Virus record (IMG/VR): IMGVR_UViG_3300035681_000001
Span: 125,764 to 189,763 of that record
Origin: a virus
Reading direction: 5' to 3' (one strand)
DNA: 64,000 nt
Each line of letters begins with the position of its first letter. Position 1 is the stretch's first letter. Made by a program: the position numbers and the translations under genes. Positions 10,001 to 54,789 of this stretch are shown here, in pieces. The notes beneath the pieces are model-generated. The model was not told the origin of the DNA. It searched no databases and saw nothing but the letters and a program-made list of their open reading frames with translations.

Positions 10001-10916
10001 TCCAGGACAGTGTACTCCTCCAGGAGGAGAGCTGTTCTTTAAGGATTCTACGTTGGACTATGAAGACTACACTGAACCGTATGAGTCTTTGCTAAAAATC
10101 GGTGATTTTAAATGCGTAGCCTTAAAAGAAGTCGTACGTCAAGCTAACGATCCTGCTTTTTTAGCAGATCTAAACGACTTGCGAGTAGGTAAGACCCCAG
10201 GTTTAGTACTAAGAGAGCGCTTTGTGGCGTCTATTAAAGGATTACCGGAGCAAGCTATACACGCTTATTACAACAACGCAGACGTTGCTTTACACAACCG
10301 TAAGGGTACTGAACAACTTATTGCTGCCGGTGCTGAGTCTAGGGTATACCATGCCACGGTAAGAAAAATAAGTTCTGGGGCTCCTGATTGGCCCGCACAA
10401 TTCAGCCCTATTGAGCCTCAAATGACACTGGCTATTGGTATGCCAGTAATGGTACGTAAGAACCTAAAAGCAGCAGATAGAACTTTACTAGCGTCTAACG
10501 GCACCACTGGTGTGGTAATAAAACTAAATCCAGATTCAGTGGTGCTAAAACTGAAAAACGGTAAAACTATCACTATCTCCCAACAAGAACTAGACGGCCC
10601 TAAAGACGGTAAAGGTCGTGATCTAGGTAAATACAAACAACTGCCCTTGCACCCAGCGTTTGCCATTACCGGGCATAAGCTGCAAGGTCTAACCCTAGAC
10701 GAACCTTTGGTGGTACACCTCTACCAAAGCGGCAGGTACGGTCAAAGAGCAATCAATACTGCAGGCTGGTTGTACGTAGTATGCTCCAGAGTTACAGAAG
10801 CTCGACATTTATACTTTGCAGTAGGAGATGCTGATCCAACCGTAGTGTTTAATTGGTTCCTGAGTGGCAACCGAGTTGATCAGTCAGCGCTGGAATGGCT
10901 TCAGAGCCTGGAATAA
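4068..10916 (+). CDS. Single-chain two-barrel RNA polymerase fused to a Pif1/RecD-like SF1B helicase
   Basis: MKARSIAK...DVDII (6525-6620), LLKGRTKIGGRRV (7692-7730), NSRAP (7872-7886), DCDGD (8010-8024); helicase GAAGTGKT (9627-9650), DEVSM (9906-9920), GDPGQ, VVRQ, AITGHKLQG, YVVCSR. Helicase call is near certain; the polymerase call is motif-based. The start could also be 4125. Confidence 0.75.
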   Translation: MNTATTAKNKENQKGNEKTMPQVVFKFYHHEVNPEATKVAILAPGHAAGPVNANVPVNFDTGHLDKAWDTMNLQGVNRRIDWQGTRLGAGSAQFRETDGSFSPVVWSSTPRTRNLRAPVQLLLATLVGGQPDWVTGAVPSGNDAAIRQHVAAAIAAGKSHDYSQHGFSLEAYVSLSEILAQPGAIHPVTGAPTGRHWFGVIGQVYSMDTCTTGGAVQTRYNCSAFDLYYLPEPEFGHSSLTPLDPYGKLNLYESLTYVPEAKVLPTTTVVLPAVPTAVPTAVPTAVGSTTVSTADTRRYWNSFGIHGLQVQEITVDSVVHDFDLINNFEGWSEIQSLFRLDGSAAAAAVTVADAARYWVSKKMYGSYQKIGDLAAYEWTVADLKDLIEIIVKVGTSRGLDADHLPCWSGEMLQFGAGGPAFKVLDKRIYDYRGRLLQNVVELKVSSHVNESGRMEYTLDGLQQVSSATQLLKLVYFGYLPLLAQSITQVMDALPANFSEFCRNAWVGANLVSWSKDQVLEQNSAARLRMDNCYPMTIRQPYSPLSGSYWVRLNEDGRFAANLVSHYEKQIRYSSKECSDLFKEAIRVAYREGGLDYRFDKKLLVGGGLGAVNCRLLAANDPAAFAALQAKFGVTESSVLSGTLKLAKGLKRLFLSMAQSVPVKGALPAGFLFRGQESPVEGFLAAVALAPTVVFTPGMSASVGAKPVAEVRKTVRNYVLHSFGTEPEFLMGLGCAIKPNNVVTETTLGITRYTLVRPTPIKPNDLLIQVANPSGSVNDVVNTSTFEGDLQWLEWQVVPSMLPGQTELKLSWEFLTYESDMKARSIAKALLVDVNPDVIFAHNKDLGDVDIIHFQDSLKVDLWWSYLMCAGTTLRYNWDKPEVAELRRLAVAINSRFGFAAFQGILIDPVHIALGHYDAFQAEFRRLFSRPLWFKFAQLAEFGRLLYDMHQSDQYERVDLGDGYESYVTKGADPNAPDTNITSFVVESGTVTEIWQRGMCLVGTETCPVYNVELFESTTPKENVGESWQFPSELRALQSITSNGVNPKALDELTNTIKADILPNLAMAKILEGMASGSLLGGKRTIAVEAAADGHYQVSTAVHARLQQIVAELGVNLAAPAEAFEKLSVRLKDVVFTFKVSGKETSIWLPALWELNKLRSTNESGQTLSSVFYRYFLVPLCLNNHVEAAVVIRLRGQLSSLLYSSETPKLLKGRTKIGGRRVGLPCIPISETWVLYSDDPSSEYQNALQYCRRASLNLEIGLNDHLVGYNSRAPLAAGWLSKLRVITPAENTSNYWQLSPYYLGISPVALYIDGGDCDGDSGYWAEQGPEFESEILDYQTVINIRNAGMDGDCRYTGSYAYAHYTRKDWAKATVTMSSGVISGCVMTEEQYCSYNVGAHIVQHEAVGSSYKLYMLGEHLIDCAQAYEKLGIECELLKPFMGALAPSLVLILAEIYETILGGFTPEALELFESYLKPAIKQGKPIALKQLTDFRKLLERFGANSLRAEEILKLINVISLVAASEVNGYLSREYTGWDGLALSAAHVVFELGRGRFHGMSAFTKGQMPQTRQALGQKAALVKFYELLLGGLQTNRELYHRLSETSSVIGCGRVLFKHLHVELGLISSNYPWLRPNLTELQWLPEVFEQFKCCQLAPATTELTETTTEITVEATTVATPEPTTATTTKPITVQVTPEPTSAALLETLKKSVLFELCAERGLTVAKKATKEQLVSALLTDPNGPPSEALVIEVSQDPATKALKQRIAELEAQVAQLEAQVTQDPEDPEEPLAVVSKPKPDPKPDSGAGTSEPTTPIAPATMSATSTAVNVPAGMPADLTPSQIRAFELFQQGHNLVITGAAGTGKTYLSNLLREYALKKNYKLVVVGSTGTSVLNIKGDGTLNSVFGLGLGFSGKRPSGLEADSLLAASRRSQICNEYLALTDEAGLIILVDEVSMVDTKLARLTWDITALQNHPTQWVLIGDPGQCTPPGGELFFKDSTLDYEDYTEPYESLLKIGDFKCVALKEVVRQANDPAFLADLNDLRVGKTPGLVLRERFVASIKGLPEQAIHAYYNNADVALHNRKGTEQLIAAGAESRVYHATVRKISSGAPDWPAQFSPIEPQMTLAIGMPVMVRKNLKAADRTLLASNGTTGVVIKLNPDSVVLKLKNGKTITISQQELDGPKDGKGRDLGKYKQLPLHPAFAITGHKLQGLTLDEPLVVHLYQSGRYGQRAINTAGWLYVVCSRVTEARHLYFAVGDADPTVVFNWFLSGNRVDQSALEWLQSLE

Positions 10917-10991
10917 ACCTAGCTCACGTAGCGGTCATATTAGAGTAACTTAGCGTAGCAGTCATAACTTAAAAAGTATTAAGTTAAACGT

Positions 10992-11030
10992 CCCAGCGTC
11001 TCCTACCTGAGGGGGCGCGGGGGGGTTTTT
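10992..11030 (+). terminator. Probable terminator after the giant ORF
   Basis: GC-rich imperfect stem followed by T5. Confidence 0.5.
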
Positions 11031-11220
11031 AAAAAAGTAAAACGGGCGCCTCGTTTTTGCAAATGTCTCAAAAAAGCAAAGCACCTGTCAGTCCAATACT
11101 GGCAGCTTTAAATAAGGTGGAGGTCCTCAAGACCCCGCCCAAAGCTTAGTTTTTGAGCCTTATCCAAAAAAGGATAGGGCTCGTCCACCAACCCCACTCA
11201 ACTCAACGCAACCTCCTACT

Positions 11221-11619
11221 ATGACTGTTTACCTGATGAACACAACCGTCATCCCCTCGGGAACAGACGGTATCTGGGAAACTCGGGCTCTACCTGTAGA
11301 GGCAGCCCGCCTAAATCTTAAGGACTGGGTTTCCGCTGTGGGGCATGACTCCACAGCGGAGATTATGTCTGAGCTACTCGGGGTAGACATACCCGTCAAC
11401 CGGGTAGCCGTTAAGCCCGTCCCCGGCGACCGACTGCTCTGTTTTAAGTTGAAGGGCCGCGCACCAGAAGGTGTTGTGCTCGATCGCCAGCAGCTTGAAA
11501 AAATCGGATACGAATGGGTCCTCATGACCTATCACGGTACGGTTGGCGCAGCGATCGACGCTGCCTTCAAAGACGTAGATAACTACATCATGGCGGTGAG
11601 GACTCACCCTCACCTATGA
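11221..11619 (+). CDS. DUF1874 (STIV B116 / YddF-like) protein
   Basis: SAVGHDSTAEIMSELLGVDIPVNR...GDRLLCFKLKGRAPEG pattern. Confidence 0.85.
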   Translation: MTVYLMNTTVIPSGTDGIWETRALPVEAARLNLKDWVSAVGHDSTAEIMSELLGVDIPVNRVAVKPVPGDRLLCFKLKGRAPEGVVLDRQQLEKIGYEWVLMTYHGTVGAAIDAAFKDVDNYIMAVRTHPHL

Positions 11620-11718
11620 ATGGCCAGCCGGGAGCCTGTCCCGGCAACTCCCCACTGCCAATTACAATCAAGCCACAGGACAACTTCCGCTCTATTGGGG
11701 GCTCAACTTTTTGCTCAA

Positions 11719-11767
11719 TTTGCAGTAAGTCATTTTGATAAAACTGAAAACTGGGACGTATGTCCTA
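11719..11767 (+). repeat. 49-nt direct repeat, copy 1 (copy 2 at 13280-13328)
   Basis: TTTGCAGTAAGTCATTTTGATAAAACTGAAAACTGGGACGTATGTCCTA is identical at both sites. Confidence 0.9.
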
Positions 11768-12194
11768 TAGAACCACAACCCTAAACCACCTCATGTATTT
11801 CACTGAATCGCTACTAAGCTTCAATACAGAAAAACTACTAGACCTAAGTAAACATTATCAACGACTGGCATCTCAAACCTCCTACGACGACTTAAGAACA
11901 TTTCAGGCTTTCAAAAGGGCCAAGCTTGAAATTGATTGCGAAATAGCTAAGCGTAAAACCCGCCCAACCTACACGCGCTTAACTGACTACCGTACCGGCG
12001 AGCCAATCTACTTTGACTCTTCAGTAGTTCCTTTAGTGGTAAAACAGGAGAAAGACCCTGGTTACCACTACACATTAGTAGTAACTAATCACGGTAGTTA
12101 CTCCGTTAGAGAAACCGCAGCAGAAGTACTATCAGCTAGCGGATGCAGTATTTATACACCAGCTCCACGCTGGACAGCAAAAATAGCACCTTAA
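11760..12194 (+). CDS. Hypothetical protein, paralogue of 13366-13941
   Basis: Shared TFQAxKRxKLxIDCEI and PAPRWTAKIA. Confidence 0.75.
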   Translation: MSYRTTTLNHLMYFTESLLSFNTEKLLDLSKHYQRLASQTSYDDLRTFQAFKRAKLEIDCEIAKRKTRPTYTRLTDYRTGEPIYFDSSVVPLVVKQEKDPGYHYTLVVTNHGSYSVRETAAEVLSASGCSIYTPAPRWTAKIAP

Positions 12195-14561: not shown

Positions 14562-14642
14562 GGGGGTATGGTGGAACAGCAGACACGCTTGGTTTAGGTC
14601 CAAGTGCCGAAAGGTGTGCAGGTTCAAGTCCTGTTACCCTCA
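14562..14642 (+). tRNA. tRNA-Leu (anticodon UAG), CCA not encoded
   Basis: Acceptor GGGGGTA/TACCCTC, anticodon arm CTTGG-TTTAGGT-CCAAG, variable arm, GGTTCAAGTCC T-loop. Confidence 0.95.
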
Positions 14643-14647
14643 CTACA

Positions 14648-24314: not shown

Positions 24315-24596
24315 GCAAAAAGTAATCTTGAAACTAGCACATCAAACTACTTCAATCGGAATTTACAATGCCAGTGACAACTGCTTACAACATCTACACT
24401 GAAGAAGACAATCAAGCAGACGGCGACCACGAGGGAGTGGTTCAGTACGTCAAATAGTTACACTCAAACCAGACCTTTTGAAGACTGGTATGAAGACGCT
24501 GAGCTAGTGGTAGTCTCCTGCAGGCCCTTGTAGGAACACCGCTTGACACTAAAGCGTACCTCTAATTTCACTAACCCCACTAACCTCACTAACCTA

Positions 24597-25259
24597 ATGA
24601 CCACGAGGCCTTCCACAATCGACCAGCTACTTGATTACTGGCCAGGAAACATTCCCTTTAAGACAAAACTAGTTAGCGATGACGGTTGCATGTGCGCCCA
24701 GGCTCAGGCGCTGTATTTTCTGGGAAATCTGACTGATGATGAAATCCGCGCCATGGGTCAAGCCGACGCTGATAGGCGAGTTGCCAAACTGTTTGGGATT
24801 AGCCTTGCTCACTCGGTCTTGCTGCGCATTGTAAACGACGGGCAAAAGGGTGCGCCTTCTAGTGTAATTAGAAATCCGGAACAAGTTTTAGGAGATCAAG
24901 CGCACGCTGTCCTTGCGTTTTGGCGGCATCTTGATGGTATAACGCCAGCAGCCTGGGCACCAGTCAAGGCAGCAACCGAGGCAGCAGCCGAGGCAGCAAC
25001 CATAGCCAAAAGAACAGCTGAGGCAGCAGCTGAGGCAGCAGCCGGGGGAACAGCCAAGGTAGCAGCCTGGGGAGCAGCCATGGCATCAGCCATGGTAGTA
25101 CCCAGCTCAAGACCCAACGCAGCAGCCTACGCTTCCAACGAGATCCAGGGCGCTGCTGTTATGTGTGCAAACAATAAACCGTTTTTCTATTTGCCGCTAT
25201 TTGGGTTTTCAGATCCACAAGCGGTAATTGATGCTTCTGAGACCAATACCACTTGTTAA
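24597..25259 (+). CDS. Hypothetical protein with GCMCAQ motif and Ala-rich repeats
   Basis: ATG at 24597 after (CACTAACCY)x3. Confidence 0.75.
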   Translation: MTTRPSTIDQLLDYWPGNIPFKTKLVSDDGCMCAQAQALYFLGNLTDDEIRAMGQADADRRVAKLFGISLAHSVLLRIVNDGQKGAPSSVIRNPEQVLGDQAHAVLAFWRHLDGITPAAWAPVKAATEAAAEAATIAKRTAEAAAEAAAGGTAKVAAWGAAMASAMVVPSSRPNAAAYASNEIQGAAVMCANNKPFFYLPLFGFSDPQAVIDASETNTTC

Positions 25260-25420
25260 CTAATGAAATATGAACAGCAACTGGCAGCTATTTTTCAAAT
25301 CCACGCAGTTCCTGAAAAGGTACAAATAGAGCTTAGAGCTCTATTTAAGAAAAGTAACCGCGAGTCCTTTCACCAAGGTTGGGCAGAGTGTGACACAAAC
25401 AGGTCATACGATTAACCAAC

Positions 25421-25465
25421 CCCACTAATCCCACTAATCCCACTAATCCCACTAATCCCACTAAT
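25421..25465 (+). repeat. Perfect tandem repeat (CCCACTAAT)x5
   Basis: Seen directly; ends 3 nt before ATG 25469. Confidence 0.95.
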
Positions 25466-25468
25466 CCA

Positions 25469-26242
25469 ATGACTGACACTCCCACCGAATTTGATGAAAT
25501 CCTACCAGCAGAAGCTGTATCAATCAAACTACTAAAAATCCCAGCAGGTAGCTTTTTAATGGGCTCTCCACCAGAGTCAAACTCAGATTATGAAAAACCT
25601 CAACACCTAGTAACTCTAGAGTCTTTCTGGCTTTCTCAAATACCTATTACTCAAGCCCAATGGTCTATAGTAGCAAACTGGCCGACCGTAAACGTACCCC
25701 TCAAACCAAACCCTTCTTATTTCAAGGGACCAAATAAGCCTCTAGAGCAAGTAAGTTGGGAGGATGCGATCGAATTTTGTAATCGCCTGTGCCAGCGCAC
25801 TGGCCGCTATTATAGTTTACCTAGCGAGGCACAATGGGAATATGCTTGCCGAGCTGGCACCACCACTCCTTTCCACTTTGGCGAAACGATCAGCTCTGAG
25901 TTGGCAAATTACAATGGAAATTACACCTATGGTAAGGGTCAAAAAGGGGTTTATCGCAAACAAACCACCAACGCCGGCAGCTTCCCCGCCAATGCCTGGG
26001 GGTTGCACGACATGCATGGCAACGTGTGGGAGTGGTGCGCTGATCACTGGCATGACAACTATAACGGAGCACCAGCAGATGGTAGCCCGTGGACTAACGA
26101 CACTAATTATGTAGGAACTAGGCTGCTGCGCGGCGGCTCGTGGAGCAGCAACCCCGGGATCTGCCGCTCGGCTTACCGCAGCAGCTCCCCCCCGGGCTTC
26201 CAGCTCGGCAATGTGGGGTTCCGCGTCTGTTGCCTCCCCTAA
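25469..26242 (+). CDS. FGE-sulfatase / SUMF1 (CLec-fold) protein 1, DGR-target-like
   Basis: IPAGSFLMGSP, LPSEAQWEYACRAGT, LHDMHGNVWEWC, RGGSW...CRSAYR...GFRVCCLP. Confidence 0.9.
   Translation: MTDTPTEFDEILPAEAVSIKLLKIPAGSFLMGSPPESNSDYEKPQHLVTLESFWLSQIPITQAQWSIVANWPTVNVPLKPNPSYFKGPNKPLEQVSWEDAIEFCNRLCQRTGRYYSLPSEAQWEYACRAGTTTPFHFGETISSELANYNGNYTYGKGQKGVYRKQTTNAGSFPANAWGLHDMHGNVWEWCADHWHDNYNGAPADGSPWTNDTNYVGTRLLRGGSWSSNPGICRSAYRSSSPPGFQLGNVGFRVCCLP
26123..26239 (+). other. DGR variable-region-like segment VR1
   Basis: 72% GC (84/117 counted); NNC codons at typical variable positions. Confidence 0.6.
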
Positions 26243-27283: not shown

Positions 27284-28498
27284 ATGCAATTTTTCACCAC
27301 CAATGGCGTTCCGGTCAAAGCTTGGACTGATGGAGTACCAGTCGAAGACAAAGCTATGCAACAGCTAAATGCTCTCGCTTCGATGCCTTTTGTTTACAAA
27401 CATATTGCCGCAATGCCTGATGTTCACTGGGGACTTGGTGCAACAATAGGCTCCGTAATCGCTACCAAAGGGGCTGTAATTCCTGCCGCCGTTGGCGTTG
27501 ATATTGGCTGCGGCATGTCTGCTCAGCGGACTACATTAACCGCTAGCGATTTGCCTGACGACTTAGGGACGCTCAGGTCTGCCATCGAGGCTGTAATTCC
27601 TCATGGTCGCACAGATAACGGCGGCCCAAATGATCGGGGCGCTTGGGGGAACGCTACCCGTACAGCTGAAGCTGCAATGCAAATACTGCAGCCGGGACTT
27701 GATGGCATTACTTCCAAGCATCAGGCAATTAGCAAGGCAGCTCAACGTGCAGTCTTGCACGCTGGTACGCTCGGAGGCGGCAACCACTTTGTTGAGATTT
27801 GCCTTGACGAAGATCAAAGAGTTTGGATTATGTTGCACAGCGGGAGTCGTGGTGTTGGCAACAGGATTGGCACCTACTTTATCGAGAAAGCTCGTAAAGA
27901 GATGGAGCGATACTTCATCAACCTCCCCGACAAAGACCTTGCATATTTAGTAGACGGTAGTGAGCTGTTTGGCGACTATGTTCAAGCAGTCGGCTGGGCG
28001 CAAGATTACGCCATGGCCAATAGGTCGTTAATGATGGACGCAGCTTTACACGTATTAAAACAAGCTGTGCCGAAACCATTTGCTTGTGACTGCAGTGCAG
28101 TTAACTGTCATCACAACTATGTATCCAGGGAGCGTCATTTTGGCTCTGACGTACTACTTACTCGCAAGGGAGCCGTATCTGCCAAAGAGGGTGAGCTGGG
28201 GATTATTCCTGGCAGTATGGGAGCAAAATCATTTATCGTGAAAGGCAAGGGCAATCGCGAATCATTTTGCTCCTGCTCTCATGGAGCTGGTCGTAAGATG
28301 GGCCGAAATGAAGCCAAGAAGCGTTTTACGATTGAGGATCACATTGCTGCCACTGCCGGCATTGAATGTAGAAAGGATCTCAATGTAATCGACGAAACAC
28401 CGGCAGCATATAAAGATATTGATGCCGTTATGGCGGCACAGGCTGATCTGGTTTCGGTGGTTCACACGCTTAAACAGGTTGTTTGTATTAAAGGGTAA
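27284..28498 (+). CDS. rtcB: RNA ligase RtcB
   Basis: MPDVHWG, GVDIGCG, GTLGGGNHFVE, LHSGSRG, CHHNY, IPGSMG, HGAGR, DETPAAYKDI. Confidence 0.97.
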   Translation: MQFFTTNGVPVKAWTDGVPVEDKAMQQLNALASMPFVYKHIAAMPDVHWGLGATIGSVIATKGAVIPAAVGVDIGCGMSAQRTTLTASDLPDDLGTLRSAIEAVIPHGRTDNGGPNDRGAWGNATRTAEAAMQILQPGLDGITSKHQAISKAAQRAVLHAGTLGGGNHFVEICLDEDQRVWIMLHSGSRGVGNRIGTYFIEKARKEMERYFINLPDKDLAYLVDGSELFGDYVQAVGWAQDYAMANRSLMMDAALHVLKQAVPKPFACDCSAVNCHHNYVSRERHFGSDVLLTRKGAVSAKEGELGIIPGSMGAKSFIVKGKGNRESFCSCSHGAGRKMGRNEAKKRFTIEDHIAATAGIECRKDLNVIDETPAAYKDIDAVMAAQADLVSVVHTLKQVVCIKG

Positions 28499-31094: not shown

Positions 31095-31174
31095 GGGGGC
31101 GTAGGAGAACGGCAGATCCAACAAACTTAAAATTTGTAGCTTCGGCATTGCGGGTTCGAATCCCGCCGTCCCCA
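31095..31174 (+). tRNA. tRNA-Leu (anticodon UAA), intron-less, CCA not encoded
   Basis: Acceptor GGGGGCG/CGTCCCC, anticodon arm ACAAA-CTTAAAA-TTTGT, GGTTCGAATCC T-loop. Confidence 0.95.
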
Positions 31175-31250
31175 CTGTTTACCTAATGACCTTGTTAGTA
31201 AAAATTGCACTAACAGTATAACCAGACTTTACCACGCCACTAGTTCTTAA

Positions 31251-53901: not shown

Positions 53902-54789
53902 ATGAATTCTCGACACGAAAAGCTCAGCGACTCGATTGCAATAACTATGCAATCTATTCCTGCTGGATCTTTTTTAATGGGATCTCCAGAAGACGAACTT
54001 AACCGTTCAAATACCGAGAGTCCTCAACACGTAGTAAGCCTGGAAGCTTTTGAACTAAGTACTGCTACTATTACTCAAGCTCAATGGGCAGAAGTAGCTA
54101 AGTGGCCCGCCGTAAATCAAGCCCTAAAGACTGATCCTTCTAAATTTAAAGGATCAAATAAACCAGTACAAAACATAAACTGGTATGAAGCAATGGAATT
54201 TTGCACCCGGCTTAGTGCTAAAACAGGTAAAGACTATACTTTACCTAGCGAGGCACAATGGGAATACGCCTGTCGAGCAGGCACTAGTACTCCTTACAAT
54301 TTTGGATTGACAGGTTCTGACCAAATAACCCGGACAGACGCTAACTTTGACAGCCAACAACCCGTTAACGTAGGTAGTTTTTGTGCTAATACCTGGAAAC
54401 TCTATGACATGCACGGAAATGTATGGGAGTGGTGTTTAGATGATTGGCACGATAGTTATGAAAACGCTCCAACAGATGGCAGTGCTTGGGGTGGTCAAAC
54501 TATCAATAGCCGTAAGGTGCTGCGCGGCGGCTCCTGGCACAACCACCCCGGGGGCTGCCGCTCGGCCTACCGCAACCTTCACCGGCCCGGCGACGTCTAC
54601 TTCAACGTCGGTTTGCGTGTGGTCTGCCTCCCTAAAAACCTAAAAACCCAAAACACCAACCACCAACTGACTGAGCTAGCTCTAATGATGGTAGGTACTA
54701 TTGAAAAGTCTAAGCTGTTTATTCCAGAAATCACAGACACCATTCGTAAGGCCCTTACTAATCAAATGAAAAACTCAAACTACAACTAG
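53902..54789 (+). CDS. FGE-sulfatase / SUMF1 (CLec-fold) protein 2, DGR-target-like
   Basis: IPAGSFLMGSP, LPSEAQWEYACRAGT, DMHGNVWEWC, RGGSW...CRSAYR...GLRVVCLP. Confidence 0.9.
   Translation: MNSRHEKLSDSIAITMQSIPAGSFLMGSPEDELNRSNTESPQHVVSLEAFELSTATITQAQWAEVAKWPAVNQALKTDPSKFKGSNKPVQNINWYEAMEFCTRLSAKTGKDYTLPSEAQWEYACRAGTSTPYNFGLTGSDQITRTDANFDSQQPVNVGSFCANTWKLYDMHGNVWEWCLDDWHDSYENAPTDGSAWGGQTINSRKVLRGGSWHNHPGGCRSAYRNLHRPGDVYFNVGLRVVCLPKNLKTQNTNHQLTELALMMVGTIEKSKLFIPEITDTIRKALTNQMKNSNYN
54517..54633 (+). other. DGR variable-region-like segment VR2
   Basis: 70% GC (82/117 counted); aligns without gaps to VR1 over 39 codons. Confidence 0.6.

Follow-up and report, generated by a model that had tools for sequence, protein, structure and literature searches.

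A variable region in a phage lectin-fold gene matches the template of picocyanobacterial diversity-generating retroelements at all but adenine positions

The lectin-fold gene described here, carried by a large, lytic-looking phage, ends in what is probably a functioning variable region (VR) of a diversity-generating retroelement (DGR) whose machinery lies outside the phage; the probable source of its diversification is host DGRs that act in trans on phage genes. The region is related to a host template repeat (TR) by adenine changes only, the phage population is polymorphic at those adenine sites, and the closed phage map holds no reverse transcriptase (RT), Avd or TR.

The window (the whole stretch of DNA analysed, 64,000 nucleotides) spans bases 125764-189763 of a linear IMG/VR record of 189,763 bp. 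The record is that of a phage, with genes for a tail sheath, helicases and a ribonucleotide reductase, and the window includes RtcB and other genes of phage families. The phage is a myovirus with a map of about 207.9 kb. A 613-aa ORF has only weak matches, in Leptolyngbya and Phormidium podophages, and identification of the phage through this ORF was dropped because they reach only about 25% identity. No IMG/VR record matched the exact phage flank, a search from which near-identical records may be hidden. Two tRNA-Leu genes, at 14562-14643 (anticodon TAG) and 31095-31175 (TAA), and the RtcB RNA ligase gene at 27284-28498 suggest a phage module for tRNA repair or supply.

Phage gene 1 (25469..26242, + strand) encodes a 257-aa stand-alone protein of the FGE-sulfatase/C-type-lectin (CLec) fold, here classed as a DGR variable protein (PF03781, E 9.7e-54, residues 22-253). 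Among PDB sequences it matches PvdO (5HHA, E 1.6e-36) as well as formylglycine-generating enzymes, and its C-terminal half, including the VR, has a sequence match to the DGR target TvpA (2Y3C, E 1.5e-19). The sole phage DNA match of the gene is one in Microcystis phage Ma-LMM01, at 71%. Its final 39 codons form VR1 (26123..26239, + strand; 117 nt, 71.8% GC). Phage gene 2 (53902..54789, + strand) encodes a 295-aa protein of the same fold (PF03781, E 2.8e-46) and contains VR2 (54517..54633, + strand; 117 nt, 70.1% GC). Each VR lies at the 3' end of the PF03781 FGE-sulfatase domain of its ORF. Gene 2 runs on for 51 AT-rich codons past VR2 (54634-54789), which makes VR2 internal; in the host genes compared, the ORF stops about 5-8 codons past the TR homology.

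The first-pass annotation, made from the window sequence, had pointed to the GC-rich end of gene 1 and to its gap-free alignment with VR2, and both observations hold in the full record. The alignment has 37 mismatches in 117 nt, and the GC contents of the two VRs compare with 44.2% for the genome. When a 100-nt sliding window was moved over all 189,763 bp, VR1 and VR2 were the top two GC peaks (0.73 and 0.71; mean 0.442, sd 0.053). The remaining peaks, at 0.68 GC or less, were rejected as extra VRs, since none matched the VR query in the phage record. The VRs are host-like in GC and the body of gene 2 is phage-like (37-47% GC), with GC rising only across the stretch that holds VR2. Another GC-rich stretch (24943-25133, 65% GC), in the ORF at 24543-25259 just upstream of gene 1, consists of repeated GCAGC-type units, is not VR-like and probably encodes an alanine-rich segment.

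Gene 1 is a mosaic relative to the cis target gene of a host DGR. Identity is 57-65% over its 5' part, rises to 92% over 273 nt (25826..26098, + strand), and falls to about 60% over the last 40 nt before the VR. The contrast between the 92% tract and the 57-65% of the rest of the gene indicates that phage and host target genes recombined in the past. In gene 2 the body lacks any such host-like tract, its best host match being 81% over about 100 nt. The interval from a small ORF to the gene 1 start codon downstream of it is filled by a run of 9-bp tandem repeats with the unit CCCACTAAT (25420..25465, + strand), which could tune expression of the variable protein. There are five exact units in the window and two, two and three in the variants L078, L079 and L080, in which the run is also shorter: L078 and L079 each have four units, of which two are imperfect, and L080 has three. 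Downstream of VR1 and VR2 we found no stable hairpin of the BPP-1 type, and z-scores were unremarkable; a hairpin was likewise absent at the one host cis-target VR tested, and this DGR clade may do without it.

Candidate templates were sought in bacterial and archaeal contigs from one genome per species, with a TR-type pattern in which AAC replaces the variable codons of the VR frame. The pattern occurred at 49 loci, most of them in freshwater picocyanobacteria and many in Lake Mendota MAGs. In an ungapped alignment over 117 nt, VR1 has no mismatch to the TR of two Prochlorococcaceae MAGs (L028 and L040) at the 92 non-adenine positions and differs from it at 14 of the 25 adenines; the chance that 14 mismatches would all fall on adenines (25 of 117 nt) is about 1e-11. 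Next come the TRs of L049 (one non-adenine and 14 A-site mismatches) and L024 (three and 14), and the remaining TR families differ from VR1 at 6-30 non-adenine positions. VR1 begins and ends with adenine-free sequence in common with this TR. The 5' homology arm is 21 nt long (26123..26143, + strand), and the TR homology begins at its 5' end (26123). The GC-rich 3' arm of 28 nt (26212..26239, + strand) has the position of an IMH-like homing end, and beyond it the TR, the host VRs and the phage sequence part ways.

The L028 locus is a complete DGR with the composition expected of a donor. It makes up the initial 8 kb of a contig that is 42.6 kb long and has about 60% GC. On one strand it encodes, in order, a 788-aa FGE-ending target with its own VR, bAvd (E 3e-13) and an RVT_1 RT (E 1e-19), followed by the TR and by another FGE target, so that RT, Avd, TR and a target VR differing at adenines are found together in a cellular context. 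Other genes on the contig are glyQ, rsmB, comEC, dprA and those for a penicillin-binding transpeptidase, a MoxR-type AAA protein and VMAP-C; glyQ, rsmB and the other housekeeping genes indicate a cellular chromosome, not a phage. All TR contigs found have 58-67% GC, and the one examined in full has housekeeping genes. The first-pass annotation had proposed that the DGR targets of a lytic-looking phage are diversified in trans, by a DGR elsewhere in the phage or by the host, and had suggested looking in the rest of the phage genome and in Cyanobium/Synechococcus genomes for a TR that differs only at A positions and lies next to an RT. Such a TR exists in L028 and L040, its relation to VR1 favours the host version of that proposal, and the variable codons that the annotation had named are the adenine-bearing codons of the host template.

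In the TR-bearing genomes (n=5, 2.6-3.6 Mb) we counted one to four DGR-type RTs each and 6-13 matches each to the VR2 query, spread over several contigs; service of dispersed targets by one RT/TR is routine in these picocyanobacteria. Host VRs of the VR1-type family differ from the TR at 0-3 non-adenine positions and 8-17 A sites. By the TR match itself, on which the assignment rests, the TR-bearing species are the putative hosts of the phage, and sample identifiers, the only indication used here, suggest that phage and host come from the same lake. The host TR/spacer RNA matched no Rfam family. When the collection of metagenome contigs was searched for the exact VR1-type TR, there were 0 matches and then one unrelated high-GC DGR (L119). 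The TR core, common to the template families considered here, had no exact match in 2.9 million IMG/VR contigs, and a wider TR pattern found one contig there, L009.

Two further features of the host loci deserve mention. In G006:C113 a MoxR-type AAA_5 ATPase and a VMAP-C protein directly adjoin the host DGR (L075:8720-11644), and bases 10001-12000 of that contig have 44% GC inside a contig of about 60% GC; this is a conflict-system setting, possibly one that was acquired horizontally. L024 (CALRTY020000002.1, a 271.9-kb contig) belongs to a MAG labelled Chitinophaga pinensis and carries a DGR of picocyanobacterial type in a locus of 58% GC, and its label or binning looks wrong.

The phage itself lacks the components of a DGR. 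In the 189.8-kb record there was no PF00078 (RVT_1) match at E<=10 and no PF22296 (bAvd) match. TRs were sought with an adenine-wildcard scan of both strands, in which the VRs were slid along the sequence and mismatches were counted only where the candidate template has no adenine; even at the closest non-self site in the record there were at least 28 of these. AAC runs, stretches dense in AAC/AAT codons and the conserved 3' extension of cyanobacterial TRs were all absent from the phage record.

The record is incomplete, as shown by an ORF that runs past its right end. We closed the gap by an outward walk with exact protein look-ups, tiling metagenome contigs from several samples, so the closure is a composite. 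At the right end L113 adds 1,739 nt and at the left end L122 adds 7,446 nt; L126 bridges the two, with an overlap of 912 nt with L113 (99.6%) and one of 2,502 nt with L122 (100%). The gap closed in this way is 18,119 nt, and with 18.1 kb missing the record is about 91% complete, compared with a CheckV estimate of 96%. The gap encodes DUF8224, an RNA ligase, a phosphoribosyltransferase, NAPRTase, DUF1937, an SMC-like ATPase, a metallophosphatase, HU and DUF7936. It contains no RVT_1 match and no unannotated ORF of RT size, and its best TR-like stretch has at least 30 non-adenine mismatches. The phage does not have a classical self-contained DGR cassette, in which RT, TR and usually Avd are on the replicon of the VR. 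The absence of an RT, Avd or AAC-rich repeat, reported in the first-pass annotation for the window, holds for the remainder of the record as well. A DGR elsewhere in the phage, which that annotation had left as a possible source, is now unlikely, given that the map closes by tiling without an RT or TR.

Variation in the phage population was measured on assembled variants. The 90%-identity cluster of the gene 1 protein comprises four alleles (n=4), and DNA was recovered for the three besides that of the window: L078 is a 5.7-kb contig syntenic with the window up to RtcB, and the other two, L079 (1.3 kb) and L080 (1.1 kb), are short. The exact VR1 allele of the window is carried by four contigs. 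Compared with the L028 TR, the four alleles have 0/14, 0/12, 0/14 and 1/15 non-adenine/A-site mismatches. The 28-nt 3' arm shows no difference among the TR and all four phage alleles, and the 21-nt 5' arm equals the TR in three of the four, with a single G/C change at position 17 in the remaining one. The gene body is polymorphic at 19 of 654 sites and VR1 at 19 of 117, against 0 of 63 in the sequence downstream of the stop codon, which is unchanged across L078, L079, L080 and the window. Polymorphism is thus about 5.6 times denser in VR1 than in the body of gene 1, and 18 of the 19 polymorphic sites in VR1 are on TR adenines (hypergeometric P about 1e-14); all 25 TR adenines occupy the first or second position of a codon. 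Such a pattern is the mark of adenine mutagenesis that has acted repeatedly, here in a phage context with phage-specific flanks, and it answers at the level of assembled variants the check on variation that the first-pass annotation had called for. Some alleles have the 5' third or the 3' two-thirds of VR1 in common, which suggests partial conversion tracts or recombination among phage alleles.

The arrangement is not confined to this phage. Eight other viral contigs carry relatives of gene 1. In two of these, L059 (phage G001, 277 kb, 98% complete) and L060, the VR differs from the TR found in a Cyanobium MAG (L034) at 15 A sites and at no non-adenine position. Phage G001 has no RT and no second copy of its VR. 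Its gene, like gene 1, contains sequence close to that of host genes, with a tract of 155 nt at 96% and 88% identity over 601 nt. The VRs of L006 and L008 differ from the L034 TR at 2-3 non-adenine positions. One FGE gene of L008 ends in two tandem VR-type units separated by 10 nt (L008:8942-9180), the first unit being out of frame after an A run and ending in its own stop codon; aberrant homing, duplication or an assembly error could account for this structure. The viral contig L009 has an ORF of two VR-type modules without a preceding CLec scaffold (L009:363-887). Its first module retains nearly all AAC codons and looks like a template, and no RT is present in the 26.8-kb record.

VR2 belongs to a different template family. 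Its closest TR, in G009:C14 (L082), is directly downstream of an RT and differs from it at three non-adenine and 10 A sites. The three non-adenine mismatches are at positions 0, 47 and 116; positions 0 and 116 are the ends, which leaves one internal mismatch. The TR of G007:C76 (L086) has six non-adenine and 10 A-site mismatches to VR2. The true host strain may be absent from the set of species-representative genomes, which could explain the internal mismatch. VR2 showed no variation between the two cluster members recovered. Judged by these alignments, VR2 is probably a target of this kind too, served by a second DGR in the same hosts. G007 and G009 each carry both a VR1-type and a VR2-type TR, and a single host lineage could serve both phage genes. 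The second DGR of G006 (C145) was rejected as a donor of VR2, its TR being of a third family with 29 non-adenine mismatches. The first-pass annotation had read the clustered amino-acid changes between VR1 and VR2 as those expected from adenine-specific mutagenesis of AAC template codons. The two VRs also have many synonymous third-position differences; together with the matches to two TR families, these led us to reject one common template for both VRs.

Three other explanations of VR1 were weighed. Host DGRs could diversify only host VRs, which repeated homologous recombination (gene conversion) would then carry into the phage gene, a version of the earlier suggestion that the phage had captured already diversified host VRs. 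This reading is live but weaker, and we consider it unlikely. Recombination between phage and host in these genes is real, as the 273-nt tract of gene 1 at 92% and the 96% tract of the L059 gene attest, and it could move VRs. In each of the four alleles the exchanged stretch is nevertheless exactly the 117-nt TR homology: the preceding 40 nt show only about 60% identity to the host gene, and the 63-nt flank on the other side is the same in every allele. Given this boundary, each recombination event would need both crossovers inside the 21- and 28-nt arms, whereas retrohoming yields an exact TR-homology boundary by design. Moreover, the nine host VRs sampled, a small number, all have at least 16 differences from any phage allele, and gene 2 is without a host-like flank.

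It is very unlikely that the phage is accompanied by a DGR that has this TR, in a structural variant, a satellite or a co-infecting element missed by the assemblies. The linear IMG/VR record with its 18 kb missing, and a closure that is composite across samples, leave room for such an element; against it, RT, Avd and TR are absent from both record and tiled gap, the TR core is found in none of the IMG/VR contigs, a second phage that is 98% complete is equally without an RT or a second VR copy, and TRs were found only in contigs of 58-67% GC, the one fully examined having housekeeping genes. Least probable, and very improbable in itself, is the reading of VR1 as a frozen relic, in which the end of a host target gene was captured a single time, is diversified no longer and has since changed by ordinary mutation. 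The four contigs that share the window's VR1 allele would fit a relic, as would the invariance of VR2 in its few contigs. For VR1 the idea is contradicted by the 5.6-fold excess of polymorphism over the gene body, by the placement of 18 of 19 sites on the 25 TR adenines, and by the retention of 92 of 92 non-adenine positions despite the diverged gene body; for VR2 a relic is possible.

Diversification by host DGRs acting in trans would proceed as follows. The phage would supply only the target, a lectin-fold gene with a 117-nt VR between 21- and 28-nt adenine-free arms that match the host TR. During infection of a freshwater picocyanobacterium, the host RT-Avd would reverse-transcribe host TR RNA, misincorporating opposite adenines. 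The mutagenised cDNA would then replace the homologous stretch in replicating phage DNA, as at the remote VRs of the host, and progeny phages would gain new alleles of the ligand-binding face of the lectin-fold protein. Direct homing of cDNA into phage DNA is what we infer.

The role of the phage proteins is a matter of speculation. They are bare CLec domains (257 and 295 aa) encoded in a region of small non-structural genes, and might act as decoys, anti-sensors or adhesins. The targets of the host DGRs are large multidomain proteins next to MoxR/VMAP genes and may be sensors, of which the phage copies, which have no effector domain, could be decoys or blockers. An extended version, in which freshwater cyanophages keep bare, antibody-like lectin-fold genes fitted with host homing arms and re-randomised in each infection, as evolving decoys or blockers of host sensors or as adhesins, strikes us as quite unlikely on present evidence. 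If true, it would mean an arms race in which phage and host use one hypermutation engine.

DGRs are usually seen as self-contained, in that the element or its carrier genome diversifies its own genes. Survey pipelines seek repeats within 1 kb of an RT, and a search of this kind would miss phage targets without an RT, or such targets would be dismissed as relics. What is new here is a remote DGR target in a virus genome without DGR machinery; the parts themselves are those of the known cyanobacterial DGRs of FGE/CLec type. A full-text search of the literature found no paper on such virus targets of a host DGR. If cDNA homes directly into infecting phage DNA, retrohoming crosses replicons, from cell to virus. 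Exact TR-VR matching would in that case provide a new and very specific link of uncultured phages to their hosts, and the hypermutation machinery of the host would be a resource or a liability in phage-host conflict.

Compared with known systems, the phage target combines familiar parts in a different genomic setting. The TvpA protein of Treponema denticola (2Y3C) is likewise a DGR variable protein with an FGE-type CLec fold, but it is a bacterial protein with the DGR in its own genome, whereas phage gene 1 has none in the genome that carries it. The system of Bordetella phage BPP-1 (mtd-avd-TR-brt) also has a phage lectin-fold protein with a C-terminal VR, adenine-specific mutagenesis as the VR is rewritten from the TR, and GC-rich adenine-free ends common to VR and TR. 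BPP-1, however, carries avd, TR and brt beside its target, and the phage here is without this machinery; the BPP-1 target is the tip of the tail fibre, and here the products are bare CLec domains of 257-295 aa from a non-structural region. Homing in BPP-1 requires a downstream hairpin (PMC3240598), the structure not found after the phage VRs described here.

The closest relatives are bacterial. In cyanobacterial DGRs, one RT/TR serves several dispersed targets of the FGE-sulfatase/CLec fold, which are recognised by TR-VR homology (Vallota-Eastman et al. 2020, PMC7517822). Like those systems, the host loci here combine a target with Avd, RT and TR and with additional targets, and the VR lies close to the 3' end; the remote targets of those systems are in the genome of their own RT/TR, whereas ours is in a large myovirus without RT, Avd or TR. 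For the trans-acting DGR loci of Thiohalocapsa PB-PSB1, the criterion was an exact match at all non-adenine sites together with natural diversification (PNAS 2024, PMC10907252), and we applied it here too. The same study proposed a MoxR/VMAP-type conflict-system setting for antigen sensors diversified by DGRs, and the host DGR here adjoins MoxR-type AAA and VMAP-C genes in a similar setting. In Thiohalocapsa PB-PSB1 trans action takes place within one bacterial chromosome, whereas the action proposed here would reach from a cellular chromosome to a virus.
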